DNA from: Candidatus Saccharimonadota bacterium
GTDB taxonomy: Bacteria; Patescibacteriota; Gracilibacteria; Absconditabacterales; Absconditicoccaceae
Assembly: GCA_965231145.1 (NCBI GenBank)
Contig: OZ246420.1
Coordinates: 1,020,001-1,052,000 of the forward strand
Length of the DNA: 32,000 nucleotides
Reading direction: 5' to 3'
A program made the position numbers and the translations under genes. This document shows, piece by piece, positions 1,077 through 30,675 of the stretch (within the stretch, counting starts at the first letter, position 1; every line of letters starts with the position of its first letter). A model generated the notes under the pieces. It worked only from the letters and a program-made list of their open reading frames with translations, was not told where the DNA came from and made no database searches.

Positions 1077-1140
1077 GATATTGAATATTAGAGGTTAGCA
1101 TTGCAATATTGCCAATATCTAATATCTATAATCTAATTGC
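1077..1140. repeat. Intergenic AT-rich array of short words (AATATT / TCTAATA-TCTATAA-TCTAATT)
   Basis: Between the rpsM stop and the rpsK start. Right half reads as three tandem 7-mers (tctaata tctataa tctaatt). Left half carries gatattg aatatta. Confidence 0.4.
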
Positions 1141-1150
1141 TGAGTATGTA

Positions 1151-1525
1151 TTATTTCTTGAGAACTGGTCTTACCTTTGCTCTACCAAGAAGTTTCTTTG
1201 CTGTACGTCCATTTTTCCTTGTTGCCTGACCTCTTACAGGGAGACCCATATTGTGTCTCATTCCTCTGTAGCACTTAATTTCCTTCAATCTTTTGATGAA
1301 AGCATTTACTTCACGCTTCAAATCATTTTCCAAAAGATAATCTTTGAGTGCATCAGTGATCTTCTTCTCTTCCTCCGATGAAATTTCTTTCACCTTCTTA
1401 AAAGGATCAATACCAAGCTCTCCAAGAATCTTCTGAGATCTTGATCTTCCGATACCATAGACAGCCGTAAGACCTATCCAAATATTTTTCTGCTCTGGGA
1501 TGACGTGTCCTTGAATTCTTAACAT
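1151..1525 (-). CDS. rpsM: 30S ribosomal protein S13
   Basis: MLRIQGHVIPEQKNIWIGLTAVYGIGRSRSQKIL...YRGMRHNMGLPVRGQATRKNGRT. Start taken at the internal ATG (1525) that matches the usual MARIAGV.IP N-terminus, not the longer track ORF. Confidence 0.9.
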   Translation of the reverse strand: MLRIQGHVIPEQKNIWIGLTAVYGIGRSRSQKILGELGIDPFKKVKEISSEEEKKITDALKDYLLENDLKREVNAFIKRLKEIKCYRGMRHNMGLPVRGQATRKNGRTAKKLLGRAKVRPVLKK

Positions 1526-1556
1526 AATGGAAGTTGTATGAATATAAATAAACATA

Positions 1557-1615
1557 ATTACAAATTACCAATCTCTCATTACTAATTTCATAGTAATTAA
1601 TAATTAGTAATTAGG
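1557..1615. repeat. Intergenic inverted array of 7-nt words (ATTACNN x3-4, spacer, (T)AGTAAT x3)
   Basis: Sequence attacaa attacca atctctc attacta atttcat agtaatt aataatt agtaatt agg. The right words are reverse complements of the left words, giving an imperfect hairpin between the rpmJ stop and the rpsM start. Confidence 0.5.
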
Positions 1616-1619
1616 TTTG

Positions 1620-1733
1620 TTACCCCTGTCTTTGCTTATGTTTTACATTTTCACAAATGACGCGGACAGTTCCTTTTCTCTTGATGATTTTGCATTTGTT
1701 ACAAATGGCTTTGATAGATGCTCTTACTTTCAT
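1620..1733 (-). CDS. rpmJ: 50S ribosomal protein L36
   Basis: Hand translation gives [37 protein letters not shown] then TAA. Canonical L36 with the zinc-ribbon Cys/His pattern. Too short for the ORF track. Confidence 0.92.
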
Positions 1734-1773
1734 CGTAGAACGAATATGATTTAGGTAAATAGAGTCTGAAGTA

Positions 1774-2088
1774 TTATGCTGCTTTTCTCAGTCACGGATC
1801 TGGAGCAAGAGGAATTGTTTTTCCTTGCACACCAGCATCTGTTTGAGCGGCAGGTCTTGGTTTATCTTTACTATGTCTGTAGATGATACGTCACTTAGTA
1901 GGTTCGTAGGGACTGAGCTCTACATCAACACTATCACCTGGAAGGATACCGATTCTATGATTTCTCATCTTTCCTGCAGCCACGGCATTGACGTCGAGTC
2001 AAAGCTCATGAATTCTTACAGTGTATCCACCCGGTCAAAGGTTTGCCATAACCTCACCCTGCATTACCATACCTTGGTCTTTAGCCAT
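1774..2088 (-). CDS. infA: Translation initiation factor IF-1 with ~30-aa C-terminal extension
   Basis: [17 protein letters not shown](G)[11 protein letters not shown](G)[35 protein letters not shown](G)RIIYRH..., where (G) marks TGA. The conserved K-G-R-I motif needs TGA=Gly. The first TAA/TAG comes only after a further [26 protein letters not shown](G)LRKAA. The ATG overlaps the rplU stop by 8 nt. Confidence 0.85.
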
Positions 2089-2401
2089 TCAGCACAACAT
2101 CTTTAATAACTAAAGTAGTCTGCAGTGGCCTGAAACCCTTATTTCTTTCATATCTATTCTTTCTCTTAAACTTCAATACATTGATCTTTTCTCACTTTCC
2201 TGATCCGACCACGTCTGCAGTAATCTTCACGTTTGTAAGCGTAGGTGCCCCTACCTGAACTTGCTGACCCTGCTCATCAAAGAGAGCAAGCACCACAAAA
2301 TCAGAAAATACCTTTTTATCTGTATCAATAAAATCAACAACAAGTTCTGTTCCTGCCTGTACGATATACTGATGTCACTGTAGTTGTACAACTGCTAACA
2401 T
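2081..2401 (-). CDS. rplU: 50S ribosomal protein L21
   Basis: MLAVVQLQ(G)HQYIVQAGTEL...VVGSGK(G)EKINVLKFKRKNRYERNKGFRPLQTTLVIKDV matches the L21 pattern (SGGKQ..V ... GRGEKV.V.KF.RRK.Y....GHRQ..T...I). Two TGA codons fall at Gly positions. Confidence 0.85.
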
Positions 2402-2430
2402 AGTTTCTAGGGATATGTTAATATGATAAA

Positions 2431-2694
2431 TTAGACAATCTTACCAAGCTGAGCAAGAGTATTGTACTTAGACTTATTTCTCTTGTACGCATGAGAAACC
2501 AACGCTCTAAGTCTTTTATATCTTCTTGCACTTGGGAACTTATATTCGATAAATTTTCTATACCACTTTGTTCCATAGTGCTTCTGCTTCTTTGCTTTAT
2601 CGAGGATGTGAGAAGACCAAAGCTCTTTTTTATAGAAAGCGATAAGTCTTTCATTTGTATTGAGATCTCATGTTCTATATACGGTAAAACCCAT
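2431..2694 (-). CDS. Small basic protein (87 aa), possibly S21-like
   Basis: MGFTVYRT(G)DLNTNERLIAFYKKELWSSHILDKAKKQKHYGTKWYRKFIEYKFPSARRYKRLRALVSHAYKRNKSKYNTLAQLGKIV. Lys/Arg-rich and embedded in the ribosomal cluster. Only a loose pattern resemblance to S21. The track ORFs here (2418..2654-, 2491..2715+) are in other frames. Confidence 0.35.
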
Positions 2695-2727
2695 GATAAT
2701 ATGATAACTAGATGATTAAAAGCAATG

Positions 2728-2814
2728 TGGTGCCTGGAACCGGAATCGAACCGGTACGGGGTTAAATCCGGCGGATTTTAAGTCCGCTGCGTCTACCAAT
2801 TCCGCCATCCAGGC
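2728..2814 (-). tRNA. tRNA-Leu (anticodon UAA), long variable arm, CCA encoded
   Basis: Reverse complement is GCCTGGATGGCGGAATTGGTAGACGCAGCGGACTTAAAATCCGCCGGATTTAACCCCGTACCGGTTCGATTCCGGTTCCAGGCACCA. Acceptor pairs GCCTGGA/TCCAGGC. Anticodon loop is CT-TAA-AA. Confidence 0.9.
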
Positions 2815-2857
2815 ATGGACGTACTCGGTCTATGACCGAGGTTGGAGACCATATCTA

Positions 2858-3205
2858 CTATGCTACAACCGCATCGTAGATTTTATCAAAAACTTGTGGA
2901 TACGCTACAGCGATATTTGAAAGTACTTTTCTGTTGAGCACGATACCCTTTTTAGTCATCTTACCCATAAACACACTGTACTTTTCTCCTTTAGCCGTAA
3001 GAGCAGCATTTATTCTCTCAATCCAAAGTTGTCTCATATCTCTTTTCATCAACTTTCTTGAGTCATATGCATGCTGACCCTGCTTTACGAGCGCGAGTCT
3101 TACCTGCTTGTAGAGATTTCCTCTTCCGAGTCTAAATCCAGACGCACGGTCGATATATTTCTTATGTCTTGCGTGTCTTTGTAAACCGTTTGATACTCTT
3201 ACCAT
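2858..3205 (-). CDS. rplT: 50S ribosomal protein L20
   Basis: Track ORF intact: MVRVSNGLQRHARHKKYIDRASGFRLGRGNLYKQVRLALVKQGQHAYDSRKLMKRDMRQLWIERINAA... Last gene of the canonical infC-rpmI-rplT order. Confidence 0.93.
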   Translation of the reverse strand: MVRVSNGLQRHARHKKYIDRASGFRLGRGNLYKQVRLALVKQGQHAYDSRKLMKRDMRQLWIERINAALTAKGEKYSVFMGKMTKKGIVLNRKVLSNIAVAYPQVFDKIYDAVVA

Positions 3206-3207
3206 TG

Positions 3208-3411
3208 TTACCTTACACTATAAGGAAGTAAATTTTTGATTCTGCTTTGCTGTGTGTCAGAAAGCACTCTACCAGTCTTTGACTGTTTTGTTGCTCTTCC
3301 TTTGTTTGTCAGCAAGTGACTTTTCTCTGCCTTATCATGAACGTACTTATTGTTTTTCGTTACTCTGATTCTTTTGGCAGTTCATTTGTGTGTCTTAAGC
3401 TTTCCAGCCAT
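3208..3411 (-). CDS. rpmI: 50S ribosomal protein L35
   Basis: MAGKLKTHK(G)TAKRIRVTKNNKYVHDKAEKSHLLTNKGRATKQSK...RIKNLLPYSVR. The conserved K-T-H-K-G-x-A-K-R motif needs TGA=Gly. The stop lies 3 nt before the rplT start. Confidence 0.88.
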
Positions 3412-3470
3412 TCTCGTTATTTACCCTTAGGGAATAAAACCATACTATATCCATTGTTTTCTTCTTTCAC

Positions 3471-4124
3471 TCATTGCGATCTACTCTGATCCTTGAGTGT
3501 TTCTTCTATATGATGTAATTTTTCTACCACTTTTGATGCATAGATCTTCTCTCTTCCTTTGAGTCTCACAGCATATCTTACACTGTAGCCATCATCGAGG
3601 AATTCAAGTGATTTCTTTATCTTCAACTGCAAATCGTTGTCCCCTATCGTATATCCAAACTTAATCTCTTTCATACCTTTCGACTTCTGCGTTTTCTTCT
3701 TATCTTTTTCTTCTTTCTGCTTGTTATACATGTATTTCCCATAATCCACCATCTTCGCCGTACAGACCATTTCAACAGGATTATATGCTATTTGCACAAG
3801 ATCCAATCACTGCTCTGAAGCCATACGAAGCGCATCATCTCTGGCAAATGTTCCGAGATTCACACCCTCTTCATCGACAATAACGATGCGAGGCGCTTTG
3901 ATCATCTCATTGGTAAACACTTGTCTTGGTTGATTTCACTGCGGACGAGGTCATGCAGCAGGACGTGGCGCCATTGCTGGACGCACTCCTGTACCACCTG
4001 TAGGCGCACTACCTGGACGAGGTCATTGGAACTGTCCCGGGGGTCTTACTCCACCTGGTCTTGGTCACTGTGGTCTATTTTGTCCAAATGAAGGACGAGG
4101 AGAAGAAGGTCTTCCGTCTACCAT
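3471..4124 (-). CDS. infC: Translation initiation factor IF-3 with ~75-aa Pro/Gly-rich N-terminal extension
   Basis: Track ORF 3471..3806 is the C-terminal part (DLVQIAYNP...MDYGKYMYNKQK...KEIKFGYTIGDNDLQLKIKK...). Reading through TGA adds NEMIKAPRIVIVDEEGVNLGTFARDDALRMASEQ(G)LDLVQI, a conserved G-L-D-L-V. Further upstream is MVDGRPSSPRPSFGQNRPQ(G)PRPGGVRPPGQFQ(G)PRPG... back to ATG 4124. That stretch is visibly GC-richer than the intergenic DNA. Confidence 0.8.
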
Positions 4125-4164
4125 AGAGCTCGAGGAACATTAAAAGGTAATACATTTCGTTTCA

Positions 4165-4238
4165 CACTCCCAGCGGGATTCGAACCCGCGATCTCCACCG
4201 TGAGAGGGTGGCATCCTAGGCCGCTAGACGATGAGAGC
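4165..4238 (-). tRNA. tRNA-Glu (anticodon CUC)
   Basis: Reverse complement is GCTCTCATCGTCTAGCGGCCTAGGATGCCACCCTCTCACGGTGGAGATCGCGGGTTCGAATCCCGCTGGGAGTG. Architecture parallels E. coli tRNA-Glu. Anticodon loop is CT-CTC-AC. No encoded CCA. Confidence 0.85.
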
Positions 4239-4245
4239 ATAAATT

Positions 4246-4323
4246 CAGTTTGTAAAGTTATAAAGTTCTTAAAGTTAAAATACCTTATTCGTTTCAACTT
4301 TCTACTTTATCAACTTTTAACTG
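4246..4323. repeat. Family A palindromic intergenic repeat, copy 1 (AAAGTT / AACTTT words)
   Basis: cagtttgtaaagttataaagttcttaaagttaaaata...gtttcaactttctactttatcaacttttaactg. The two arms are imperfect reverse complements. Right arm is near-identical to copy 4 (8294..8376). The whole copy is the reverse complement of copies 2 and 3. Confidence 0.75.
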
Positions 4324-4328
4324 TTTTA

Positions 4329-4404
4329 TGGCGCCCTAGCATGGACTCGAACCATGAACCTACAGCTTAGAAGGCTGTTGCTCTATCCATTGAGCTACTA
4401 GAGC
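4329..4404 (-). tRNA. tRNA-Arg (anticodon UCU), CCA encoded
   Basis: Reverse complement is GCTCTAGTAGCTCAATGGATAGAGCAACAGCCTTCTAAGCTGTAGGTTCATGGTTCGAGTCCATGCTAGGGCGCCA. Anticodon loop is CT-TCT-AA. Confidence 0.9.
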
Positions 4405-4757
4405 ATAATAATGCTTGGCACATAATACAAATAACAAAGAAAAATAGACACAAGCTATTTGTGTTATTTTTAAGGCATTGTATTATTATCTTTAAAGATC
4501 GGTTCTTCAGTCATCAGCATATACAACTGATGTGCCGCCTATACACATGGATAGTACCGACTAGCTACTGAAGTCATATCGAGCAATAGTTTTTGCTCAG
4601 TAGGGAAAATATACGAATGTCCAGTATGATTGCAAGAGCATTTCAATGTAATTGAATTTCACCCCCCTTTCTATAAGGTGTCAAACAGTGCTCACATTGC
4701 ACAAAAAATTGATCATTAACAATATTATTCACACAAAACAAAAACATATATTGTAAT

Positions 4758-5843
4758 ATGGAAACAACAGCCACAGCCGACAATGTCGGCAAAATCACAT
4801 TTACTCCTCCCCCGAAAGACGGACTGAGTAAAACCCTCAAAAAGAGAGTGGATGAGTACTTTACCCAAAACAACCTCAGCAAAAAAGGAGACTGGAGGCT
4901 CTACAGCAAGACTATTATCCTTTTTACACTCCTCATCGCAAGCTTCATTGTAGCTCCCCTCGCTACAGAATGGCGGGCAGTATGCCTCCATTATGTATTC
5001 AGAGGGCTCATAGTTGCTGGCATCGGCTTCTGCGTCATGCATGACGCCTCGCATGGATGTTACTGCGCAAACAAGTCTCTGGAAAAACTCGTACTTTTCC
5101 TTGGAGGCGACGCCATGGGTCTAAGCACATTCGTATGGGATATCAAGCATGTACAGGTACACCATACCTATACCAACATTGAAGGACATGACGATGATAT
5201 AGCACAGGGAAGCATATTAAGGATGAACACCCAGCAACCCAAAAAGCCGTGGCACAAGTACCAACACATCTATGCAGTAGGTCTTTACACTCTCCTATCC
5301 ATCTCCTGGATCATTAAAGACTTCGTAAGAATCTTTAAAACAAAAATGGTGATGCACAAGAAGATAAAGATGGACCGAAAGGAAATTTTATTATTCCTCT
5401 CTGGCAAAGCATTGTGCATTTTACTGTTCTTGGTAATACCACTGCTCGTTTCTCATACGTGGCAGCATGCTTTAGTTGGTTTTTTGCTTATGCATGCCGT
5501 ATTGGGACTGACTCTTTCGTTAGTCTTTCAAGGTGCACATGTCGTTGAGGAAACTGATTTTCCTGAGCCTCCTACCATGGAGGAATGGATGATACATCAA
5601 TTAGCGACTACGGCTGATTTTGATCAAAAGAACAAAGCGCTATCATGGTATGTTGGAGGTCTGAACTTCCAAATAGAACACCACCTCTTTCCCAACACAT
5701 CTCACATCCACTATCCTAAGATAGCGAGAATAGTGCAAGATGTCTGCAAAGAGTACAACACGAATTACATCGTATTTCCCAATTCCAGAACGATGCTAAA
5801 GTCACACTTTAGCTTACTTCGGAAGGTAGGCAACGCAGAATAA
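4758..5843 (+). CDS. Membrane fatty-acid desaturase (three His-box, front-end/acyl-lipid type, no cytochrome b5 domain)
   Basis: Track ORF intact (361 aa). His boxes are HDASH, HVQVHH and QIEHHLFP, with four or more hydrophobic spans between them. No in-frame TGA. Visibly GC-richer than its neighbours. Confidence 0.85.
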   Translation: METTATADNVGKITFTPPPKDGLSKTLKKRVDEYFTQNNLSKKGDWRLYSKTIILFTLLIASFIVAPLATEWRAVCLHYVFRGLIVAGIGFCVMHDASHGCYCANKSLEKLVLFLGGDAMGLSTFVWDIKHVQVHHTYTNIEGHDDDIAQGSILRMNTQQPKKPWHKYQHIYAVGLYTLLSISWIIKDFVRIFKTKMVMHKKIKMDRKEILLFLSGKALCILLFLVIPLLVSHTWQHALVGFLLMHAVLGLTLSLVFQGAHVVEETDFPEPPTMEEWMIHQLATTADFDQKNKALSWYVGGLNFQIEHHLFPNTSHIHYPKIARIVQDVCKEYNTNYIVFPNSRTMLKSHFSLLRKVGNAE

Positions 5844-5869
5844 TGCATTCATTATGGCGCAACAATTAC

Positions 5870-5897
5870 ATCCTGGGATTTTCCCGGGATTTTTTTG
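5870..5897 (+). terminator. Rho-independent terminator after the desaturase
   Basis: atcctggg-atttt-cccgggat followed by ttttttg. The stem is 8 bp (one G:U) and GC-rich, unlike the AT-rich word hairpins elsewhere in the window. Confidence 0.7.
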
Positions 5898-5960
5898 TTG
5901 CAAAAAAATCACTATCCGAAGATAATGATTTTGAGTACTATGTAGTTTATTATAAAGGCT

Positions 5961-6602
5961 CTATAGATCTTTCTGAGAAATAGGCTGAACAGAATATTTA
6001 TCTAATACTCCACTAAACAAGTAGTGAGCGAGCTCTACATCTCATTCACGCTCTGCATTTCGAGTTGAATCAGACTCAGGGTCGTATTTTCAGGGATGAA
6101 GTACTATTTCATAGCTTTTGCCTTCCTCTAAAGAACTAAGCCAATCCTCTATTTCTGCATGAGTCTTTTTGTATGAGATATATCTAATTTCATCCGTATG
6201 CTTTTGAGAAAGCTCTTTATCTCAACGATTTCTCAAAGCAATGTGTAATTCATCTGCCTTCTCTCTGAGAAGTCTTTTTCATTCTTCATTATGTAGGTCT
6301 TTATGAACATCCAAATGTGTTGGCTGTTGTCAAAATATAGAAAGAAATTTATCTAGTTGATCATTAATAATATTCTTGGTATTTTCATCTTCAGAGTCAA
6401 AGATAAGATGCAATCACAAGCTTATGTTTTTTCCTTTACACGCCTCTTTTAATGCTTTTACATCTTCTGCCTGGTTTTCAATTCCTCTTTTTACCATGAT
6501 CGAAATTCCTGTTAATTTATTTTGTTCACACAACAAAACTATTTCATGATTGAATATTTTACTTGTTCCGAAATCATCAGCATCAATAACTAATTTCTTC
6601 AT
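5961..6602 (-). CDS. YdjC/ChbG-family carbohydrate deacetylase-like protein
   Basis: MKKLVIDADDFGTSKIFNHEIVLL... (ADDFG motif). Reading through six TGA gives ...(G)LHLIFD...QQPTHLDVHKDLH...VLHP(G)KYDPESDSTRNAERE(G)DVELAHY..., ending at TAG 5961. The HPG motif needs TGA=Gly. Confidence 0.6.
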
Positions 6603-6692
6603 CTATGATCTAGAGTGATAAATACAACCAGTATAAAAGATTTCTTTTCTCAAACAATAAAAAAAATGCCTACCCGTAAGCAGACAAATTTT

Positions 6693-6766
6693 TGGACCTT
6701 AGGGGAGTCGAACCCCTCACCTCCTCGGTGCAAACGAGGCGCTCTAGCCAAATGAGCTAAAGGCCC
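6693..6766 (-). tRNA. tRNA-Ala (anticodon UGC)
   Basis: Reverse complement is GGGCCTTTAGCTCATTTGGCTAGAGCGCCTCGTTTGCACCGAGGAGGTGAGGGGTTCGACTCCCCTAAGGTCCA. The G3:U70 alanine identity pair is present. Anticodon loop is TT-TGC-AC. Confidence 0.9.
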
Positions 6767-6772
6767 ATAGAT

Positions 6773-6838
6773 GAGTTGAAAGTTTCTAAAGTAGAAAGTT
6801 GAAACAAATGAAGTTTTAACTTTACGAACTTTATAAAC
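6773..6838. repeat. Family A repeat, copy 2 (inverted relative to copy 1)
   Basis: gagttgaaagtttctaaagtagaaagttgaaacaaatgaagttttaactttacgaactttataaac. About 90% identical to copy 3. Aligns to the reverse complement of copy 1 (shared aaagtagaaagttgaaac and ttttaacttta.gaactttataac). Confidence 0.8.
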
Positions 6839-6848
6839 TAATTTGATT

Positions 6849-6931
6849 TGGGAAGGGAAGGATTTGAACCTTCGTAGGGTTGCCCCGAGGGATTTACAGT
6901 CCCTTGCAATTGACCGCTCTGCCACCTGCCC
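6849..6931 (-). tRNA. tRNA-Tyr (anticodon GUA), long variable arm
   Basis: Reverse complement is GGGCAGGTGGCAGAGCGGTCAATTGCAAGGGACTGTAAATCCCTCGGGGCAACCCTACGAAGGTTCAAATCCTTCCCTTCCCA. Anticodon loop is CT-GTA-AA. Confidence 0.88.
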
Positions 6932-6939
6932 ATTAAAAT

Positions 6940-7015
6940 GAGTTGAAAGTTTCTAAAGTAGAAAGTCTAACAAAATGAAGTTTTAACTTTACGAACTTTA
7001 TAACTTTATGAACTG
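6940..7015. repeat. Family A repeat, copy 3
   Basis: gagttgaaagtttctaaagtagaaagtctaacaaaatgaagttttaactttacgaactttataactttatgaactg. Direct repeat of copy 2, sitting immediately upstream of the next tRNA on the reverse strand. Confidence 0.8.
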
Positions 7016-7018
7016 TGT

Positions 7019-7246
7019 TTAGTTGATCCTAAGACCTGTTGGATCTGGTTTGACAAACTGAGCGCCAAACATGATCATCACGCCAAGGACGATGAAGATA
7101 AACCCAAGACCCATGCATGCTTGTCTTGTTCCTCCGATATGACTTTCTGCTCGTTCCCATCTTCCCATTATTTTGGCAAGAGGCGCAGAAAAACCTATAA
7201 GAGCAACTCCTATACCTGCTATAAATAAACCTGCGAGAACACCCAT
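7019..7246 (-). CDS. Small hypothetical membrane protein (75 aa, two hydrophobic spans)
   Basis: Track ORF MGVLAGLFIAGIGVALIGFSAPLAKIMGRWERAESHIGGTRQACMGLGFIFIVLGVMIMFGAQFVKPDPTGLRIN. No family recognised. Confidence 0.4.
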   Translation of the reverse strand: MGVLAGLFIAGIGVALIGFSAPLAKIMGRWERAESHIGGTRQACMGLGFIFIVLGVMIMFGAQFVKPDPTGLRIN

Positions 7247-7288
7247 ATTGAAGAGATAAACGCAAAGTAAAACAAGGTACAGTCAATT

Positions 7289-7362
7289 AGCGAGCAACGG
7301 GACTTGAACCCGTACAGGCAGAGCTGAATTCTGCCATGCTACACCAATTACATCATGCCCGC
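7289..7362 (-). tRNA. tRNA-Gly (anticodon UCA), the UGA decoder
   Basis: Reverse complement is GCGGGCA-TG-ATGT-AATTGGTGTA-GCAT-G-GCAGA-ATTCAGC-TCTGC-CTGT-ACGGG-TTCAAGT-CCCGT-TGCTCGC-T. Anticodon loop is A-T-TCA-G-C. Acceptor pairs are G1:C72, C2:G71 and G3:C70, with discriminator U73, which are the glycine identity elements. Confidence 0.85.
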
Positions 7363-7529
7363 ATGTCACATGCACTGTGGGTGTGACTATATCAATATGG
7401 TGTATAATTGCAAGCTAAATTCTTTATTATTTTCTTATAGATAAAAAAAGATAAAGGATGTTGGATTATCGATAGTGACTCATATGAGTTCGCCCTTAGC
7501 GATTATCCTTGATCCAATATCCAATCAGA

Positions 7530-8291
7530 TTAGTCAATGGCTCCGCCTGTTCTACTATCCAACTCATCTCTGATCTGGATAAGTCTCTCGAGGTAGCTAT
7601 CTTCAAAGAGATCTACATTTGCGATGATGATGTCTTCATTTGTTGTAAGAAGATTTTCAAGTTCTCTGAGGGCAAGCGTATAATTTCTCAGTCTTCATGT
7701 CACAGCCTGATACACATTGCTAGAGATCCTTGCCGTAGTTTCACACGTACCAAATCTCAGTGAATCACTATATCATTGCTGCATAAGATCAGCATCGGGC
7801 GCACCAAGTCACTGAAAAAACTGATTGTCCGCCGCTGCCTTATCTGAAGCACATTGTTGATACTCAGTTAAGGCGCTATCGTATTCACTCTGAAGCGATA
7901 CAAGCACCTGTTCTCCTTGCGCCACCGTCTTGCTTATACTTTTGGTATATGTGTCGAGCGCAAGCTTTTTATTGTTAGCATTTTGTAGATATGAGATAAC
8001 ATTGTTTGCGAGGATTGTATTAGCTTTTTTGAGGACATCTGCTGCCTGTGAAAAAGAAACATTTGCGGCAACGCTTTTATGCATAAGTTCAAGATGAAGC
8101 ATAGTCACACCCAGAACAGAATCATCAACAAGAGATTTTTTCTGGTAAATCGTAGGAGTAACTTGTTTCTGCGACGTCCAGACTCCGAGCCACGATGCTC
8201 ATGTTGCAGAGCGTACGGAAATAAAGAGCGCTGCACACGCTCCCAGAAGGACGATATAAAACAGTGGATGACTCACTACTCTACGGAACAT
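7530..8291 (-). CDS. Hypothetical N-terminally anchored or secreted protein (253 aa), last gene of the pilus-like operon
   Basis: MFRRVVSHPLFYIVLLGACAALFISVRSAT(G)ASWLGVW... joined to track ORF 7809..8108. It reads through three further TGA to TAA at 7530. The frame was checked codon by codon and has no TAA/TAG. Helix-prone, Ala/Leu/Gln-rich. No family recognised. Confidence 0.55.
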
Positions 8292-8293
8292 AA

Positions 8294-8376
8294 GAGTTTA
8301 TAAAGTTTATAAAGTTCTTAAAGTTTATAAAGTGAAAGAAGATTTATGAACTTTCTACTTTACAAACTTTTAACTG
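8294..8376. repeat. Family A repeat, copy 4 (between the pilC stop and the next gene start)
   Basis: gagtttataaagtttataaagttcttaaagtttataaagtgaaagaagatttatgaactttctactttacaaacttttaactg. Shares ataaagttcttaaagtt and aactttctacttta..aacttttaactg with copy 1. Confidence 0.8.
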
Positions 8377-8377
8377 A

Positions 8378-9481
8378 TTAGCCTGCCGCACCAATGGTGT
8401 TTACCATGTCAGCCATCGGCAAGAAGATAGAAGCAACTATCACACCGATCACGATTGCGACACCCGCGAGAAGAATAGGCTCAAGCAAGCTCATGAGCGT
8501 TTTGATTCTTGTATCCAGAAGATCGTTGTAAAATGATGCCATCTTTTCAAGTACGGTATCAATATTACCCGTACGTTCACCTACCAGTACGATCTGTACG
8601 AGGATCGGATCAAAGAGAGAAGAACCTTCCATAGAGTCTGAGAACCCAAAACCCGCTTCCAAGTCTCTTCTAATATCGAGAACCTTCTTTTTATAATGGT
8701 AATTTGCCATAATCGCAGAGATCTGTTCGAGCGCAACTGTCGGACTTACTCATGCTTTGTAGAAGTCACCAAGAAGCTTCGAAAACCTATATAGATAAAA
8801 TGTTTTTACTGTTTCCCCCACTACGGGTGTTTTCAGCATCACATCATCGATGAATATCTTGAAGAGAAGGATGTGCTTATACGAAAACTTGTACACAATG
8901 ATAGTACCTACGATAACAAGTCCAATAATCCATCGCCATATTTTGAGAAAGTCTGACATACCGATCACAAATTTTGTGATAGATGGAAGAAGATTTGGAT
9001 CCGGGAAAAGTGTCACGATTGTTGGGATAACCTTAATAAGAAGAACCGCCACAGCAAGGATCGCAAAAACCAAAAGCACGACAGGATACGTCATCGCACT
9101 TTTTACTTTGTTCTTTGTTCTCTGGAAATTTTCAAGCTCCTCTGCAATATTCAAAAGAATATCCGGCATATTACCAATAGATTCTGACGCCCTTACCAGC
9201 TCTATTTCATCATTTCCAAAGAAGTTTTTATATCTTTCCATCGCCTTCGCAAGGCTCACACCTTCATTAATCTGATCTTCAATTCCCTGGATGATCACTT
9301 TCATTGCATAGTTTCTTTCTCCATAGATGAGTGAATTGAGAGCTTCTTTCAGACCAAGTCCCGCCTTCTGAGATACCGACAGCAATCTGAAAAACACCGT
9401 CTTATTTTTGACAGTTGCGCGGTTGAAGATACTCATCACCCGCTCGACGACGTTGATCTGAGATGATTTAGTTGCAGCCAT
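8378..9481 (-). CDS. pilC: Type IV pilus / type II secretion platform protein (PilC/GspF family)
   Basis: Track ORFs 8750..9481 and 8378..8710 join in frame through one TGA (..DFYKA(G)VSPTVALEQISAIMANYHY..). The protein shows two GspF-type repeats (LLSVSQKAGLGLKEAL... and ...LVGERTGNIDTVLEKMASFY) and three hydrophobic spans. Confidence 0.85.
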
Positions 9482-9507
9482 TGCAATAGCATAGAAGAGT
9501 AAAGAAT

Positions 9508-10818
9508 TTATTTATGTTTCACCAATCTGTATAATTCGTCCAATGTGATATTTCACTTTATCACTTTATAGATACCATCTCTTTCAAGATTTGACATACC
9601 TCTATCGAGCGCGTACTTTTCAATCTCGAAGGCTGTTTTACCCTGAAGAAGAAGGTCTTTAATCGAATCATTATACTCCATCACTTCAAAGATACCCATA
9701 CGTCACTTATATCACGATCCTGAACATACAGGACACACCTCTCACGTCTTAGGATCTTTTCCAGATCCAAGGAGCACCTTTCCTCACACGAATCTCTGCC
9801 ACATTACATCATCGATTCCTCTTTTCTTCATCTCCGTCACTAGCGTTTCCTTTGGTATACGTCCAAGCTCTTCTCTTGCCCACAGATATTGTTTGTCTTC
9901 TTTCATATCTACTTCCTGCTTACAGTTTGTACATACTTTTCTCGAAAGACGCTGAGCCATAACGAAGTTAAATGTACCTGCAAGCATGTATGGTTTTGCA
10001 CCTAGATTGAGTACACGCGTAATAGTTTCTGCTGCTGAGTTGGTATGGATCGTAGAGAAGACAAGATGTCATGTCATCGCTGCTTCCATCGCCATATCAA
10101 TGGTTTCCTTATCACGAATTTCTCACACCATGATAATATCCGGATCCTGACGTAACGCAGCACGAAGTCCTTGCGCAAACGTATAGCCAATATCAGATCT
10201 AATTTGAGACTGAGAAAGACCATCCATCTTGTTTTCCACCGGATCTTCATAGGTAATGATATTCACATCTACCTTATTGATATAGTCCAGCGCGGCATAC
10301 AACGTTGCGGTTTTACCCGAACCTGTCGGTCCGGTATTGAGGATAATTCCATTTGGGAATTCGAGCTGACGCAAAATGAGTTCTTCATTTGTTCCTTCGA
10401 TACCAAGTTCATTGAGTTTTTGCGTCTTCTTTGACTTATCCACAATACGCATCACAAGTTTCTCTCACCAGACCGTAGGCAGTGTTGATGCACGTAAGTC
10501 TATTTCCTTGTTGGTGAGTGTTATCGTAGATACACGCGCATCCTGGGGAACACGCTTTTCGTCCGGACGCATCTGTCCCGATTCAATTTTAAATTTAGCG
10601 ATAATACTTTCGTGAATATTTTTTGGATATTGAATAAGTTCAAATAATAGCCCATCAACTCTGAGTCTAATTCTTCCAAAATTTTCAAATGGCTCAATAT
10701 GGATATCGGATGCACCCTCTTCTACAGCGATCGTCAAAAGATTGTCGAACAACTTGATCGTGTCCGCCTGTATGATCGAATCCTGAAGACTTTTTCTAAA
10801 TTGAGATGTATCTGTCAT
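9508..10818 (-). CDS. pilB: Type IV pilus / T2SS / competence assembly ATPase (PilB/GspE/ComGA family), 436 aa
   Basis: Four track ORFs plus a C-terminal piece join through eight TGA. Motifs are Walker A GPTGSGKT, DPDIIMV(G)EIRD, MT(G)HLVFSTIHTN, and the tetracysteine CTNCK...CPVCSGS(G)YK(G)RMGIFE. The frame was checked codon by codon to TAA at 9508. Confidence 0.9.
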
Positions 10819-10881
10819 TGGTATCGAATTAATAAAGAATGATTGGTTTGTATTCTCTATAGTGTTTTTAGTTATGTAAGA

Positions 10882-12291: not shown

Positions 12292-12321
12292 GATAATAGA
12301 GGTAATAGAGTATAAAGAATG

Positions 12322-13826: not shown

Positions 13827-13855
13827 AGAGCAATAATTTCTCATATGAAACTAGT

Positions 13856-14294: not shown

Positions 14295-14356
14295 ATCTTA
14301 AAACATAAAGCTAAAATCTTAAAACTGCTTTTGGGTTTTAGATTTAAGTTTTCAGT
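14295..14356. repeat. Family B palindromic repeat, copy 1 (TAAAATCTTAAAAC ... GTTTTAGATTTAAGTTT)
   Basis: atcttaaaacataaagctaaaatcttaaaactgcttttgggttttagatttaagttttcag, in the divergent region between recX and the methyltransferase gene. Confidence 0.7.
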
Positions 14357-14444
14357 TAATAAGTTTATAACTATTTTCTCCCTTTTTTCCACGAGGAAAA
14401 CACAATTGTTGTTTTCTCTAACGGTTTTTCTATACTTATGAGGT

Positions 14445-17686: not shown

Positions 17687-17693
17687 ACTTCTA

Positions 17694-17760
17694 TCTTAAA
17701 ATTAAAATCTTAAAACTTAAATCATGTAGATTTTAGTTTTTTGTTTTTAGATTTAAGTTT
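17694..17760. repeat. Family B palindromic repeat, copy 2
   Basis: tcttaaaattaaaatcttaaaacttaaatcatgtagattttagttttttgtttttagatttaagttt. Lies between the DUF475 gene start and the pilin-like gene stop. Confidence 0.7.
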
Positions 17761-17761
17761 A

Positions 17762-19663: not shown

Positions 19664-19832
19664 TAACTATCCGCTTACTACAGACATAATACCCACGATA
19701 CTCAGTACAAAAAGCGATCCATAGATCATAAATGCTGCTCTCATGTGATGACAATAGAATATAAATCTTCTTAATATTATAGATATAAAATATATATTGT
19801 CAATTTTCGTTCTACTTTTTCTCACGAATTAT

Positions 19833-19858
19833 AAAAACCCACCGTTTGGTGGGTTTTT
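19833..19858. terminator. Bidirectional rho-independent terminator
   Basis: aaaaacccacc-gttt-ggtgggttttt is a perfect stem flanked by an A-run and a T-run. It lies between convergent clpP and the 19940..20425 gene. Confidence 0.75.
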
Positions 19859-19939
19859 GTTATATCAAATATATGTGAATGATGTATTGAAATGGATGTA
19901 AAATATTACGTCGCTACAAACAAAACGACGTGAATTACA

Positions 19940-20425
19940 TTAGTCTGTAGCCTCTTCTTTGCTTTTCTTTACGAGCATTGGATAATGAATTAAGAACAGT
20001 ATCAATGCGAGCGTCCCCCACGTAATACCTCCTATCACTGTTTGCTTTGTATCATAACTTCTTTGTGCAAGAAGGTTCGCTGTTGTCTTTTCTTCACATG
20101 CTGTGATCTCCTCTGCGGTTGGCGCTACGGGAGTTTCATCTGCCTTCGCTACAGCAGAATACTGAGGCTGTTTGCATTGATCAAGTGAGTACATTCTTCC
20201 CTGCCCTGCCATATACTCTTCATTTGAGATAAGCGCAGACTGGATACCATTATACAAAGCGACACCGTATCCTACTGCAAGCCCAATCACTCCAACGAGT
20301 GAAACCATAGTAAGGTAGAACTTCAGAAGCGAGAATCTATTTTTCATGGCGAGTACAATAAGAAATATAAAAACGATACCTAATAGTAATACTAACATGG
20401 GAATAATTGGTGAACTATCAAACAT
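19940..20425 (-). CDS. Hypothetical membrane protein (161 aa, three hydrophobic spans)
   Basis: Internal start of track ORF 19940..20512: MFDSSPIIPMLVLLLGIVFIFLIVLAMKN...VGVIGLAVGYGVALY...GGITWGTLALILFLIHY. No family recognised. Confidence 0.45.
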   Translation of the reverse strand: MFDSSPIIPMLVLLLGIVFIFLIVLAMKNRFSLLKFYLTMVSLVGVIGLAVGYGVALYNGIQSALISNEEYMAGQGRMYSLDQCKQPQYSAVAKADETPVAPTAEEITACEEKTTANLLAQRSYDTKQTVIGGITWGTLALILFLIHYPMLVKKSKEEATD

Positions 20426-22896: not shown

Positions 22897-24388
<1,492 letters not shown>

Positions 24389-24454
24389 AAATCCTGGCTT
24401 AACCTCTTTGCTATGCTATCAACTGTGAATGTTCATGTGGTAGAACCATATCTA

Positions 24455-24580
24455 CCAAAGGTGGCATCAATCTACTTTCCCAGGACCATTGATCCCAGTA
24501 TCATTGACCACTAGAGGCTTAACTACTGTGTTCGGAATGGGAACAGGTGTTTCCCTCTGATGCATCGATACCACCATTGG
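24455..24580 (-). rRNA. rrf: 5S ribosomal RNA (ends approximate)
   Basis: Reverse complement contains CCCATTCCGAACACAGTAGTTAAGC and GGGAAAGTAG. Terminal helix I pairs ccaatggtgg.atcga with ttgatgccacctttgg. Confidence 0.85.
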
Positions 24581-24631
24581 TAGATAGAGCGTTTCCATCT
24601 CGAGACAAATATATCATATTTTTAAAAGAAC

Positions 24632-27580
<2,949 letters not shown>

Positions 27581-27928
27581 GTCTTTTAAAAATATGATAT
27601 ATCTGTCTGTTAATGGTCCACTTTCTGCTCGAGGCAGTGGTGAAAAAGATATAGAAGTTAGAAGCTATTGCAAGTGATTTTTTGACTTTTTACATACCAC
27701 GTAAACTGAATTGGTAACTAGGCGTTCGCATTCTGACCATACATTTGTCAAAAGAATGTTGATAAAAAGTGCTCAAGAACTGTCTTTTTCGTAGCAAAAT
27801 TTTTCATTTTTCTTTATTACTCATTTCCTTCGTATACTATTCGCAATAAAACCTTGCTTCGCTCCTCTATTTTCGTACAACACATGCATCTCGTCTCATT
27901 ATTTATTATCTTGTATTATGTCAAATAC

Positions 27929-29122
27929 ATGACTTATAAAGCCGCTTTCATTCACGACCGAATATCACACGAGTGATGAGCAGAATCTGTACTGAAGTAT
28001 CTAATCAGAACCACTTATCATGACGAATGAGTCATTTTCACCTATTATAGTAAGCAGACTTGGTGGCGTGTGGATGACAAAGCATATCGCATTGTTACCG
28101 CACTTCCTTACTGGTTAAATAAACGATTTATTATCTGCAATACCAGAAACCTTTTTTTACTCTCTACATTATTTGATTATAGGAATCTTATGTTTCGATT
28201 TCCTCTTCTTACGAAAATGTTGAGACGTAAAATCAATAACTATTCTCCTGATGCAATAATAATTTCTTCTTTTGCAGCAGTAAAAAACGTCATATCTACC
28301 AATAATAATTCTCAATTCTGAATTCTAAATTCTAAATTAAATACCGAGAATTGAAAATTGAAAATTGAAAATAGACCTACGGTGAGTCTATACCTCCATA
28401 GCCCTATGCAATACATATGGGAGAACTATGAAGAGAATATTGCAAAGCTTCGTTTTCCTATTAAACAACTCTATCAACTTGCGACACTCTATCTTCGTCC
28501 ATGGGATAAAAAGAAAAGGTATTATGATACGGTTTGTTTTAATAGTGAGTACACACAATCATTGGCGCATAAACTCTATAAGATGGAAGGAGAAGTAAAA
28601 TACCCTCCTATCAATTCAGAATTCAGAACTCAAAATCCAAAATTATTATGAGATGTGAGTTATGAGATATGAGTTTACTATGTATTTATGTGAAGAATAG
28701 TTCGTTATGTGAGAGAGATAGATACAATTATTCATTTGTTTAATACCCTACAACTACCACTCATTATGGCAGGCGACGGACCCGACATGGCATATGCACA
28801 AAGCATAGCGTGACCGACCATCATCTTTACTGGTTATATAGATAGTGTAGAAGAAAAGAAAAAACTACTACAACAATCACGCTGATACATCAACCTTGCG
28901 AAGGAATCGTTTGGTATAGGAACAGCAGAGGCACTCTGCTCCGGTGTGCCGGTATTTGGATATAATGCATGAGCAACCTCCTATCTTGTGGATGAAAGCA
29001 ATGGCGTTCTCGTGGATAAAAAAGATGAAAAGAATTTGATACAGTGATTTTCGGAATTTAGTAGCAAGACTTTTGATAGAAGAAAAATCGCAGAAGATGC
29101 GCAGAAAAAGTTTTTTACGTAA
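27929..29122 (+). CDS. Family 4 (GT-B) glycosyltransferase, 397 aa
   Basis: MTYKAAFIHDRISHE(G)(G)AESVLKYL... has two consecutive TGA in the conserved GGAE motif (27974..27979). Further motifs are ...DAIIISSFAAVKNV...LYLHSPMQYIWE...YPPI...YYVFM(G)RIVRYVREID...LIMAGDGPD...FTGYI...ESFGIGTAEALCSGVPVFGYNA(G)A...GVLV. Twelve TGA are read through. It contains two in-frame 7-nt word arrays. Confidence 0.75.
28307..28374. repeat. Intragenic 7-nt word array pair inside the GT4 gene
   Basis: aattctc aattctg aattcta aattcta aatt aaataccgag aattgaa aattgaa aattgaa aatag. It is in frame and encodes NNSQF(G)ILNSKLNTEN(G)KLKIEN, between the ISSFAAVKNV and LYLHSPMQYIW motifs. Confidence 0.65.
28615..28676. 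repeat. Second intragenic 7-nt word array pair inside the GT4 gene
   Basis: ttcagaa ttcagaa ctcaaaa tccaaaa tt attatt atgagat gtgagtt atgagat atgagtt. It is in frame and encodes SEFRTQNPKLL(G)DVSYEI(G)VY. Confidence 0.6.
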
Positions 29123-29193
29123 CCCTTTCGACAAACATTTGCATTGAGAGGTGGATGTGGCTATATAGTAAGTATTATCTCTTTTTGTATGAC

Positions 29194-29673
29194 ATGAAAA
29201 AAATCATCCTTTCCCTTTTTGTTCTTTCTGCCTTCTGCTCGCTCATGATGACGCGAGTAAGCGCAGGAACGACTACAAGCAATAGTCGATGAGACAAATG
29301 AAGCTCACCGATAGAAATTCTTGACCGCGTTGCGGAAGAGTCGAACAAAGAGTATAATGTACAGGATACAAGCCTGGATGGAGTAAGCGCCGATGACGGC
29401 GAGTATTCCTCTGAGTATAAAATCGCTAACACGCTTGATAGCATAAGACAGAATATCGCACCATATCTCCAATGGATGTTTTATATCTGACTATGAGCAG
29501 CAACATTGCTTATCGTCTACAATGGTTTTCTGCTTGTTACCGGTGCTGTGAGTGGAGAAGATTTCAAGAAAGTACAGTGAAGGATAAAAAATATCGCTAT
29601 TGGCATCCTGATCATGACATGATTTGCTATGATAGTCAGACTATTCCTCGCGATCATCGCTTCTATCGTTTAA
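29194..29673 (+). CDS. Secreted two-TM helical-hairpin protein, VirB2/TrbC-like (T4SS-pilin-like), 159 aa
   Basis: Not in the ORF track because six TGA split it. It was rebuilt codon by codon: MKKIILSLFVLSAFCSLMMTRVSAGTTTSNSR(G)DK(G)SS...APYLQWMFYI(G)L(G)AATLLIVYNGFLLVTGAVSGEDFKKVQ(G)RIKNIAIGILIMT(G)FAMIVRLFLAIIASIV then TAA. It has a signal peptide followed by a TM-loop-TM hairpin. Confidence 0.5.
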
Positions 29674-29713
29674 ACATTATGTGTTATTTATTGATTTACG
29701 CTTCTTGAAATAG

Positions 29714-30622
29714 ATGGTCAAAAAGATTCTCCTTGGATTAGTATTGTTGTGAATCATGAGTTTTGAAGTTTCGATGACCTTTGCCGCCCCATCATTTAAC
29801 CAGGATATTGCTAATCCTCTTACACTTGGGATTGTGGCTAATGAAAATATGATATCGCCCATGACTCTTGGGATAAATCCCAACATGCCACTAAGATGGA
29901 ATATCTACAATCTCTTCTCTCCTTCCAATGACAACGCAATCCTCTGGCGCATGCTGAGGACTGTTATGGTTGGCGTTCTCATCCTGTATCTTGCCTGGAC
30001 AGGCATAGAGATGATGCAAAAAGCCTGAGACGAAAAAGGTCTCGCAAAGGCAAGAAAAAGTTTTCTGTACATCCTCTTTGGATGTTTTCTTGTCTGGGGA
30101 GTTACGTGGATTCTTGGAACAGCATTACAAATCGATACCGTTCAATGATCGCAGTGACTACTCAACAATCTGCAAAACAATGCACTGTTTCAGATATTAG
30201 CCTTCCTGAAGGGTCTCGCATTCTTCTATGCAATCATCATGTTCATCTACTATGGCTTCCAATTTATGAGGGCACTCGAAGAAGAATCAAAGATCAAAGC
30301 AGCAAGAACGGGTATCGTCAATGTGATCGTTGCTCTTATCCTCATCAAGATCATCGACTTCATCTACTATCTCGCACAGCAACAAAACTTCGCTTCTCAG
30401 TTCCAAAACTTCCTCATCAACGCAGCAAGAATATCGGCGTATGTACTTGGATCTATCATGGTCATCATGCTGATCCGAGGGGGTGTCAAATATCTTACAG
30501 CACAAGGAGATGAGGCAAAAGTGAAAGACGCACAGAAAATCATTACCACGAGTTTCTTTGTTATCCTTATTATCTTCTTATTCCTCCTTATAGCATATCA
30601 AATTATTGCAGAATTTACCTAA
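29714..30622 (+). CDS. Membrane protein with three tandem VirB2/TrbC-like helical-hairpin modules, 302 aa
   Basis: MVKKILLGLVLL(G)IMSF... joins track ORFs 29756 and 30239 in frame through four TGA. The three modules are TVMVGVLILYLAWTGIEMMQKA(G)DEKGLAKARKSFLYILFGCFLVWGV; AFFYAIIMFIYYGFQFMRALEEESKIKAARTGIVNVIVALILIKII; and AYVLGSIMVIMLIRGGVKYLTAQGDEAKVKDAQKIITTSFFVILIIFLFLL. Confidence 0.5.
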
Positions 30623-30626
30623 TTAG

Positions 30627-30675
30627 CTAAAACCTTAAAACTAAAGACTGCTCTCAGTTTTGAGATTTAAGTTTT
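30627..30675. repeat. Family B palindromic repeat, copy 3
   Basis: ctaaaaccttaaaactaaagactgctctcagttttgagatttaagtttt. Shares ctaaaa.cttaaaac and gatttaagttt with copies 1 and 2. Lies between the pilin-module gene and murF. Confidence 0.7.

Follow-up and report, generated by a model that had tools for sequence, protein, structure and literature searches.

Convergent arrays of short tandem words form repeat families at gene junctions in a 32-kb stretch of candidate Absconditabacteria DNA

Gene content and array elements of the window

We analyzed a 32-kb stretch of contig OZ246420.1 (referred to as the window, to which all coordinates refer unless a locus is named), in which many gene junctions carry arrays of tandem 7–9-nt words that are mostly arranged as two convergent halves. 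The genes of the window lie mostly on the minus strand and comprise rpsD-rpsK-rpsM-rpmJ-infA-rplU, tRNA genes, type IV pilus genes, clpP, rnhA, an rRNA cluster, a glycosyltransferase gene, and a Mur ligase gene. A tRNA with the anticodon UCA is encoded at 7289–7362(-), and the open reading frames (ORFs) are uninterrupted only if TGA is read as sense. Together, these features point to an Absconditabacteria-type organism that uses genetic code 25 (UGA = Gly). Based on ribosomal protein S13, the closest public genomes belong to the Patescibacteria/Absconditabacteria (SR1), with sequence identities of 89% for locus L001 and 78% for locus L002; an exact look-up of the S13 protein encoded in the window gave no record.

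Thirteen elements were distinguished in the window (Table 1). Ten of them had been proposed in an earlier sequence-only reading of this DNA and were all recovered with the same coordinates and words, and three are additional. The contexts assigned in that reading agree with our gene map: elements separate co-oriented genes of operons or neighboring tRNAs, and two of them (14295 and 21086) lie in divergent regions. ORF 13856–14287(-), upstream of B1, is presumably RecX-like, judging from its translation. Counts of multi-copy families given for the host genome rest on these 32 kb.

Table 1 Word-array elements of the window, with their words and the genes that they adjoin
Element	Family	Coordinates	Strand	Words	Location	dG (kcal/mol)
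E1		1070..1140		GATATTG/AATATTAG words, then CAATATC/TAATATC/TATAATC	between rpsM stop (1151) and rpsK start (1033)	-18.4/-16.7
E2		1556..1615		ATTACnn words, then AGTAATT words	occupies rpmJ-rpsM spacer	
A1	A	4246..4323		AAAGTTnn x3, then AACTTTnn x4	between tRNA-Arg and tRNA-Glu	
A2	A	6773..6840		AAAGTTnn/AACTTTnn; opposite orientation by 21-nt motif	between tRNA-Tyr and tRNA-Ala	
A3	A	6940..7015		near-identical to A2	between ORF 7019-7246 and tRNA-Tyr	
A4	A	8294..8375		TATAAAGTT x4, then AACTTTnn x3	occupies whole spacer from pilC-like stop (8378) to next start (8291)	
B1	B	14295..14365		CTTAAAA-type, then TTTTAAG-type words	divergent region, recX-like ORF(-)/rsmB/F-like ORF(+)	
B2	B	17692..17760		CTTAAAA/TTTTAAG-type	occupies spacer between ORF 17762-18937 and terC-like gene	
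B3	B	30624..30680		CTTAAAA/TTTTAAG-type	directly after stop of ORF 29714-30622, upstream of Mur ligase gene	
C1		21086..21165		TAGCAnn words, then CTGCTAn words	divergent region rnhA(-)/ORF 21173(+)	
C2		15782..15810	+	TAGCAAT x3.7, direct-only	within 3' part of rsmB/F-like ORF 14445-15902	
G1		28307..28375		AATTCTn x4, then GAGAATTGAAAATTG...	in frame in glycosyltransferase ORF 27884-29122	
G2		28613..28675		AATTCAG-type, then TGAGATA-type words	in frame in glycosyltransferase ORF 27884-29122	

Non-randomness of the arrays

The word arrays at gene junctions are real and highly non-random. A strict detector, which required exact 5-mers in at least three tandem words at 6–11 nt spacing plus at least two reverse-complement words no more than 45 nt away, found six inverted loci in the window. 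A shuffled-sequence control, proposed along with the earlier reading and performed with 200 dinucleotide-preserving shuffles (global or in blocks of 100 or 300 nt), yielded 0.005–0.02 such loci (maximum 1 in 200). Tandem arrays of at least three words numbered 24 in the window compared with two to three expected from the shuffles. Tandem Repeats Finder (TRF) returned 32 rows for the window versus seven weak rows for the corresponding 32-kb rRNA and ribosomal-protein region of Escherichia coli K-12, and no period-7 array was found in that E. coli region. One could suppose that the arrays arise by chance, as a by-product of AT-rich intergenic DNA with low complexity, given that intergenic DNA is indeed AT-rich here and many of the words are near-palindromic AT strings. 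This explanation is refuted by the shuffle controls, including those that preserved local composition; it is also difficult to reconcile with the sharp period peak at 7 nt and with a 21-nt motif common to four copies (see below), so that its probability is practically negligible.

Period, word families, and arm structure

Period and density statistics were obtained from TRF rows of the window and of 74 SR1/Gracilibacteria loci (densities: SR1 loci). Pairing of arrays by TRF consensus was insensitive, with 2 found of more than 10, and this approach was therefore kept for densities and periods only. A period check that the earlier reading had suggested revealed a sharp peak at 7 nt across the window and the 74 loci (7 nt, 194; 8 nt, 68; 9 nt, 39; 6 nt, 23; 10 nt, 8), and the arrays of the window have periods of 7–9 nt. 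In the typical element, one core word forms two arrays that point toward each other. The previously described number of three to five words per arm was reproduced, and the distance between the arms was 7–20 nt instead of the 5–18 nt given before.

At least seven vocabularies occur within the 32 kb. The four AAAGTT elements (family A) have a 21-nt motif, ACTTTCTACTTTANNAACTTT, in common, which occurs twice in each orientation (four matches versus 0.01 expected). The hexamer AAAGTT is found 31 times in the window, which equals the chance expectation, yet 18 of these 31 occurrences fall inside the four family A elements with a total length of ~300 nt. Judged by the shared 21-nt motif, the AAAGTT sites are a true repeat family. 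Similarly, the three family B sites share a 14-nt motif, and AAAATCTTAAAACT-like and AGATTTAAGTTT blocks are present in all three CTTAAAA elements. In the related locus L047, a TGGAAA family occupies five sites.

The complementarity of the two arms is limited to the core word, and linkers and word order are independent between arms. In A4, for example, the left arm is built of 9-nt units and the right arm of 7–9-nt units. When the unit order was permuted in one arm, the arm–arm duplex was not weakened (32 elements; mean +0.4 kcal/mol, p = 0.11). An origin by snap-back or template switching, which predicts colinear complementary arms, was rejected on the basis of this permutation, which showed no colinearity. 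A loop motif, AAAAAAUACC(A/G)AC, adjoins the 3' arm in several elements of differing vocabularies (L044, L046, and L047), and AAAATACC lies in the loop of A1 (4277–4290).

Turnover of the arrays among relatives

Synteny with the loci L001–L003 spans kb 1–11 of the window. At the site of E1, the rpsM/rpsK junction of these three relatives measures 49–63 nt and contains no array. The rpmJ/rpsM spacer is 64 nt long in the window versus roughly 30–40 nt, again without an array, in L001–L003, and the tRNA-Glu/tRNA-Arg spacer is 89 nt long versus 18 nt in L002, while L001 carries a different word array (AATTTT) at this junction. No family B array was found upstream of the Mur ligase gene in L201–L203. 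Arrays crowd the ribosomal-protein junctions of L044, L047, L049, and other Absconditabacteria. Across ~70 genomes the rpsM/rpsK junction exists in two states, which are a spacer of 21–30 nt or a spacer of 80–157 nt with an array. In the long state, the inverted array directly follows the stop codon and precedes a conserved leader, ATTTATCATTTATCATTGTTTA, which lies just upstream of rpsK and is itself a tandem 7-mer (L035, L037, L040, L046, L048, L054, L060, L062, L066, and others).

At least 12 vocabularies were found at this one junction among the relatives. At these orthologous junctions, for which the earlier reading had suggested a check of word identity, the words differ among relatives or the array is absent. 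The loci L035 and L037, which are ~93% identical, differ by a two-word block in only one arm. This difference is direct evidence of the gain or loss of whole units and supports slippage, which had been among the candidate processes named from the sequence. Our literature search on Absconditabacteria found no description of such repeats. According to a survey, Gracilibacteria rank second among all phyla for inverted-repeat density.

Placement relative to genes and terminators

The elements of the window begin 1–10 nt past the upstream stop codon, and several reach within 1–5 nt of the next start codon or tRNA. In the SR1 loci, array density was 0.74 per kb in intergenic and 0.10 per kb in coding DNA (a 7.5-fold difference). 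The spread of arrays over co-oriented, convergent, and divergent junctions matched the background in these loci, and the same holds for family A among the listed matches in metagenome contigs (described below).

The claim that a simple terminator role does not cover all arrays was borne out, as the window contains separate canonical terminators and arrays also lie inside transcription units. Canonical GC-rich stems followed by a T-run are located at 5870–5890(+), 6686–6667(-), and 13826–13813(-), and another one was recognized by eye near 19830. A scan of positions 1–20000 yielded 12 terminator-like sites, none of which lies within a word element; those at 5870, 6686, and 13826 are the convincing ones. 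Because the terminator at 6686 follows tRNA-Ala, the unit composed of the ORF, A3, tRNA-Tyr, A2, and tRNA-Ala is closed by a normal terminator and contains A2 and A3 as internal spacers. The arrays resemble intrinsic terminators, including bidirectional ones, in forming a stem-loop after genes with an A-rich 5' side and a U-rich 3' side. They differ in that their stems are AU-rich with periodic mismatches, lack a dedicated T-run, and occur inside operons.

Two elements, G1 and G2, lie in frame in one coding sequence. A Pfam scan identified ORF 27884–29122 as a GT4-type glycosyltransferase. Compared with the closest homologues, G1 adds ~24 aa in frame to a variable loop that follows SSFAAVKNI, and G2 adds a net ~6 aa immediately ahead of the Glycos_transf_1 domain. 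In L201, the nearest relative, the loop that holds G1 contains another 7-mer array (AAATCAG x4). Based on these in-frame copies and the other array in L201, the array-making process acts on DNA generally, and inside genes only tolerated in-frame copies survive. The loop after SSFAAVKNI is an insertion hot spot across the Absconditabacteria homologues (0 to ~45 aa; alignment columns ~250–310), and the homologue P0028 carries a tandem duplication there (LPPQVAVKNI x2).

Apart from the arrays, the order of the rRNA genes in the window (22898–27581, minus strand) is 23S (27581–24629), 5S (24575–24459), and 16S (24387–22898), with spacers of 53 and 71 nt, which differs from the usual order 16S-23S-5S.

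Family A words in metagenome contigs

The most surprising result of this study is that the AAAGTT vocabulary extends across phyla. A scan of metagenome contigs for the family A motif retrieved at least 120 contigs; as these were fetched by the motif itself, the figures for contigs given here and below apply among the matches listed. AACTTTnn arrays are present in most of the matched contigs, and many contain the complete AAAGTT...AACTTT architecture. They mostly use the standard genetic code (code 11), and the contigs examined carry Bacteroidota-type genes, including a SusC/SusD pair in one case. Their vocabulary matches that of the window (AAAGTAG, AAAGTTTAT, AAAGTTCAT, AAAGTTTGT, AAAGTTCTT, and others), and the unit length of family A is bimodal with 7 and 9 nt. 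Two related contigs have family A positioned upstream of yidC and of pntA, in the interval that separates a Bacteroidota-type -7 box (TAnnTTTG) from the ATG. At the pntA2/pntB junction, L130 has AAAGTT words where L177 has TTATGAG words.

Carriage of family A by phages was rejected, because nine of ten viral matches were chance hits in coding sequence; viral contigs are essentially free of family A arrays. A BLAST search of a plasmid collection with A4 gave no match, possibly owing to the low-complexity filter, and a literal search of the literature for family A words returned only coincidences with primers. In L143 (6500–12699), ~208-nt repeats hold direct arrays of up to 12 AACTTT words and are spaced 1.0–1.4 kb apart between small ORFs. 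This layout resembles a cassette array, and a 37-nt palindromic motif beside the arrays first looked like a repeat of the clustered regularly interspaced short palindromic repeat (CRISPR) type. Family A words as CRISPR spacers were rejected for L143, where the repeats flank cassettes. The units of the window are 7–9 nt long and contiguous, and thus lack the 24–48-nt repeats and unique spacers of CRISPR arrays. One adjacent pair of small ORFs in L143 we assume, from their N-termini, to be HEPN- and nucleotidyltransferase-like.

Some further observations concern the surroundings of family A. In L082, L100, L142, and L188 it is located directly upstream of the ATG of small genes that start with MKIxRFEDIIxWQK, which we take to encode proteins resembling four-helix-bundle proteins of the 23S intervening-sequence type. 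A GC-rich palindromic repeat, CCCCAAACCCCTAAAGGGGCTTT...AAAGCCCCTTTAGGGGTTTGGGG, occurs at junctions of Bacteroidota-like contigs (L177 2049–2181; L098 and L161) and in at least one case stands in for a family A element at an orthologous site. In L160 (~13200–13250), a long (AG)n microsatellite adjoins a family A array.

Relation to known repeats and protein-binding arrays

To our knowledge, heterocystous or filamentous cyanobacteria are the only described hosts of short tandemly repeated repetitive sequences (STRRs), which, going by the title of Vioque's 1997 paper, reportedly also occur within the structured gene rnpB. The earlier reading had not recognized the arrays of the window as a described class of elements. 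Here it has to be corrected, as STRRs and paired arrays of Geobacter metallireducens had already been described. STRRs (Mazel et al. 1990; Vioque 1997; as described in PMC2670836 and PMC2408588) are intergenic, hairpin-capable 7-bp tandem repeats located, for example, between hupS and hupL (PMC2670836), with further examples in PMC2408588. The arrays of the window share with them the tandem 7-nt units, the few word families that are dispersed in multiple copies in one genome (four copies of family A, three of family B, and five TGGAAA sites in L047), the hairpin-forming capacity, and the predominantly intergenic location, which in STRRs includes the spacer between the co-transcribed hupS and hupL. 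They differ from STRRs in their words, as STRR words contain GC (CCCCAGT, TTGTCAG) and those found here are AT-rich and unrelated, and in their hosts, which are Patescibacteria and Bacteroidota instead of cyanobacteria. We also found no report of STRRs in a convergent two-array form with fixed polarity or stop-codon adjacency.

The genome of G. metallireducens contains four multicopy classes of paired arrays, termed 'global regulator binding sites', each consisting of three to five tandem 7–9-nt repeats on opposite strands (Aklujkar et al. 2009, PMC2700814). With 16–48 copies per class, these arrays are intergenic, also between proB and proA, are absent from G. sulfurreducens, and were guessed, without a test, to bind integration host factor (IHF) or HU (PMC2700814). 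Unit length and number, the pairing of opposite-strand arrays at variable distance, the organization in several multicopy classes, the intergenic location, and the lineage specificity, with absence from sister species, are the same in the elements described here. The Geobacter words, in contrast, are GC-rich (GTTGCTYN, TCTCCGTS, MTYCTGA), and insertion sequences insert at a fixed distance from those arrays, to which nothing comparable was seen here. The arrays of the window are therefore not a new class but an AT-rich member, in new phyla, of an unexplained kind of heptamer repeat.

Other known repeats are less similar. Repetitive extragenic palindromic (REP) sequences of proteobacteria, with their compound forms (bacterial interspersed mosaic elements, BIMEs, and REPINs), are single 20–40-nt palindromes that are mobilized by REP-associated tyrosine transposases (RAYTs), and their transcribed hairpin can stabilize upstream mRNA. 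Like REPs and REPINs, the elements described here are extragenic imperfect palindromes dispersed in lineage-specific families between operon genes and at gene ends; REPs, however, have no internal tandem words. No RAYT was identified, where only two ORFs of the window were scanned against Pfam and no genome-wide search was made. With respect to miniature inverted-repeat transposable elements, inspection by eye revealed no common duplication in the flanks of A1–A4 (the empty sites of relatives being unalignable), and copy length and word number vary. Palindromic elements of Rickettsia (RPEs) are able to sit in frame in genes, and mycobacterial interspersed repetitive units (MIRUs) are tandem repeats that fill intercistronic spacers of operons. 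These two features recur in our elements, but the units of RPEs and MIRUs are 40–150 nt long compared with 7–9 nt here, and there is no sequence relation.

Contiguous 7–8-bp units in direct and inverted orientation with a conserved core are also known from the sites of ribbon-helix-helix (RHH) proteins, such as the 7-bp heptads bound by omega of pSM19035, the tandem 8-bp boxes of MetJ, and ParG sites. The arrays could accordingly be periodic double-stranded DNA sites for small cooperative proteins, either omega- or MetJ-like RHH proteins or IHF/HU as hypothesized for Geobacter (PMC2700814). The 7–9-bp period, the conserved core with free linkers, the independence of the arms, their fixed convergent polarity, and the strand-symmetric behavior of the elements would be in line with such a function. 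However, RHH arrays use one vocabulary per protein at a few promoters, centromeres, or other regulatory sites, whereas many vocabularies are present here at most junctions, with at least seven in 32 kb and at least 12 at a single junction. [quoted passage not shown] Moreover, the mixture of 7- and 9-nt units in one array is poorly suited for cooperative helical phasing, and arrays between tRNAs and within a coding loop do not fit this explanation, which we consider very improbable.

A possible DNA-level origin

Three roles had been proposed from the sequence. Of these, a mutational or self-propagating origin fits best, protein arrays are unlikely, an RNA hairpin lacks strand-specific support (see below), and none is proven. 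We tentatively favor, at somewhat less than an even chance, that the elements represent a DNA-level, family-structured short-period repeat (7–9 nt, mode 7) of REP/STRR-like nature, which is resized by units and copied between junctions, with hairpin formation being secondary. Arrays would arise and be resized in DNA by replication slippage of whole units. In addition, the multi-word blocks shared by different sites suggest spread or homogenization between junctions, and such blocks may be copied or homogenized by recombination or a transposition-like step, in which case each genome would keep few vocabularies. Copies would survive almost only in non-coding spacers, often filling them from just past the upstream stop codon. 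As the arms are complementary only in the core, either strand could form a weak, AU-rich stem in many different registers. The effect of this hairpin would be at most REP-like, as a structural spacer between cistrons or tRNAs, and secondary to the persistence of the repeat at the DNA level.

Several observations weigh against this proposal. In family A, the AAAGT array is located 5' of the ACTTT array in a ratio of 39:4, and across all SR1 vocabularies the G- or purine-rich arm is the 5' arm in a ratio of 17:4 (binomial p ~0.007). This polarity cannot be a strand bias, because an inverted repeat reads alike on both strands. The direct-only arrays in the metagenome contigs carry AAAGT on the sense strand in a ratio of 23:7 (p ~0.005) and begin 0–20 nt past the stop codon, and the first word often includes this codon. 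Such a sense-strand placement after stops is not what one would readily expect of neutral junk. Furthermore, the arms of the orthologous elements in L099 and L194 are ~98% identical and contain one compensatory change from A-U to G-C, whereas their loop is unalignable and the flanking genes are 76–80% identical. Likewise, the element in L146 and L148 is ~95% identical between flanking genes with 76–80% identity. This conservation of arms above the gene level suggests purifying selection or recent homogenization. Slippage alone also does not explain the presence of one vocabulary in two phyla. Finally, no copying machinery, target-site duplication, or transposase was identified in the flanks of A1–A4 (by eye) and in two ORFs (by Pfam).

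RNA folding and a possible role in transcripts

The predicted hairpins, described before as AT-rich and periodically mismatched, were reproduced by folding, in which all elements formed stems that are rich in AU and interrupted periodically by internal loops, with dG values of -8 to -21 kcal/mol and, for most of them, z values of -2.4 to -5.5. If a hairpin in the sense transcript were selected, G:U pairs and stability should favor the sense strand. No such advantage was detected for 38 elements between co-oriented genes (20 versus 17 more stable, p = 0.92; G:U pairs 53 versus 52). At the rpsM/rpsK junction (n = 21), the antisense strand even folded better (13 versus 8, by a mean of 2.1 kcal/mol, p = 0.058), with G:U pairs numbering 61 versus 30. 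An explanation by RNA alone was not adopted because there was no sense signature overall and because it was reversed at rpsM/rpsK. In addition, no element matched an Rfam family at the gathering score in the whole window or at E ≤ 1 over positions 1–22000, which contain 10 of the 13 elements.

Nevertheless, the arm conservation above the gene level, the biased polarity, and the stop-codon adjacency make a primary function in RNA a serious rival, even if we regard it as rather unlikely. According to this explanation the hairpin itself is selected, and the elements are intercistronic or inter-tRNA stem-loops. Their function might be to shield RNA ends left by processing, to divide polycistronic precursors into segments, or to attenuate or insulate in a leaky, bidirectional manner. 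They might also couple translation, if a ribosome that terminates at the stop codon opens the adjacent 5' arm and thereby releases the 3' arm at the next start; tandem words would provide the stem with tolerance to indels and pairing in any register. The cores of the arms are complementary in every genome although the words differ at the same junction, and orthologous pairs keep their arms, with one compensatory pair, while loops vary freely. Such a role would also suit elements that extend from a stop codon, often as far as the next start, and the position of family A between -7 box and ATG at yidC and pntA in the two related contigs. The purine-5'/pyrimidine-3' polarity fits the A-tract, stem, and U-tract of bidirectional terminators, and transcript stability or translational coupling was proposed in the STRR literature (PMC2670836). 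These points are opposed by the absence of a folding advantage of the sense RNA and by G:U pairs that are equally frequent overall and twofold commoner in antisense at rpsM/rpsK. Complementarity does not extend to linkers and word order, there are many G.A and A.C mismatches in each word, and about half of the family A arrays are direct-only and unable to form a hairpin. Copies in frame within a gene and in divergent regions, and the lack of the elements in close relatives, also count against a selected hairpin.

A shared signal across phyla

The distribution of family A raises the question whether a conserved factor reads AAAGUU/AACUUU words in trans, be it a protein that binds RNA or the machinery of transcription or translation. 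In that case, family A would serve Bacteroidota and this CPR bacterium alike as a widespread post-stop or intercistronic signal. This idea is supported by the recurrence of one vocabulary, with unit lengths bimodal at 7 and 9 nt, in at least 120 contigs (mostly of code 11, one of them with the SusC/SusD pair), as well as by the 39:4 polarity, the sense-strand orientation and post-stop start of the direct-only arrays, the arrays that abut the next ATG, and the conservation of arms above the gene level. Family A in the window, however, also flanks tRNAs, where no translation occurs, and other vocabularies occupy the same kinds of site. The contigs were retrieved by the motif itself and are thus subject to ascertainment bias. 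A pairing with 16S helix 17, similar to the T7 'epsilon', was rejected, since AAAGTT occurs in this 16S only at ~743 and not at the helix-17 position that this pairing needs. Overall, we judge a trans-acting reader to be distinctly improbable.

In a broader formulation, AAAGTT/AACTTT may be a conserved trans-read signal with 7/9-nt units, the AAAGU array always 5' of the AACUUU array, a beginning on the sense strand no more than ~10 nt from the stop codon, and an extension often up to the next start, which would mark gene ends and intercistronic spacers in many Bacteroidota and some Patescibacteria through a putative RNA- or DNA-binding reader. More broadly still, the 7-nt period of STRR, Geobacter, Bacteroidota, and CPR arrays might reflect one machine or repair pathway that lays down polar heptamers. 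We consider this cross-phylum reading improbable as well.

Implications

Repeats of the heptamer type have been known from cyanobacteria since 1990 and from Geobacter since 2009, without an accepted function or origin. The analysis of this code-25 bacterium from a candidate phylum and of its relatives shows abundant arrays of the same architecture, which fill junctions of ribosomal-protein operons. One of the word families is found again in Bacteroidota, with a fixed polarity and adjacent to stop codons. Hence, this is a cross-phylum phenomenon and not an organism-specific curiosity. Its regularities, namely the period of 7, the convergent polarity, the independence of the arms, and the adjacency to stop codons, are open to test. 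In practical terms, the arrays lengthen intergenic spacers and add residues to proteins, and in genomes of CPR bacteria and Bacteroidota they can cause errors in gene calling, terminator prediction, and assembly.

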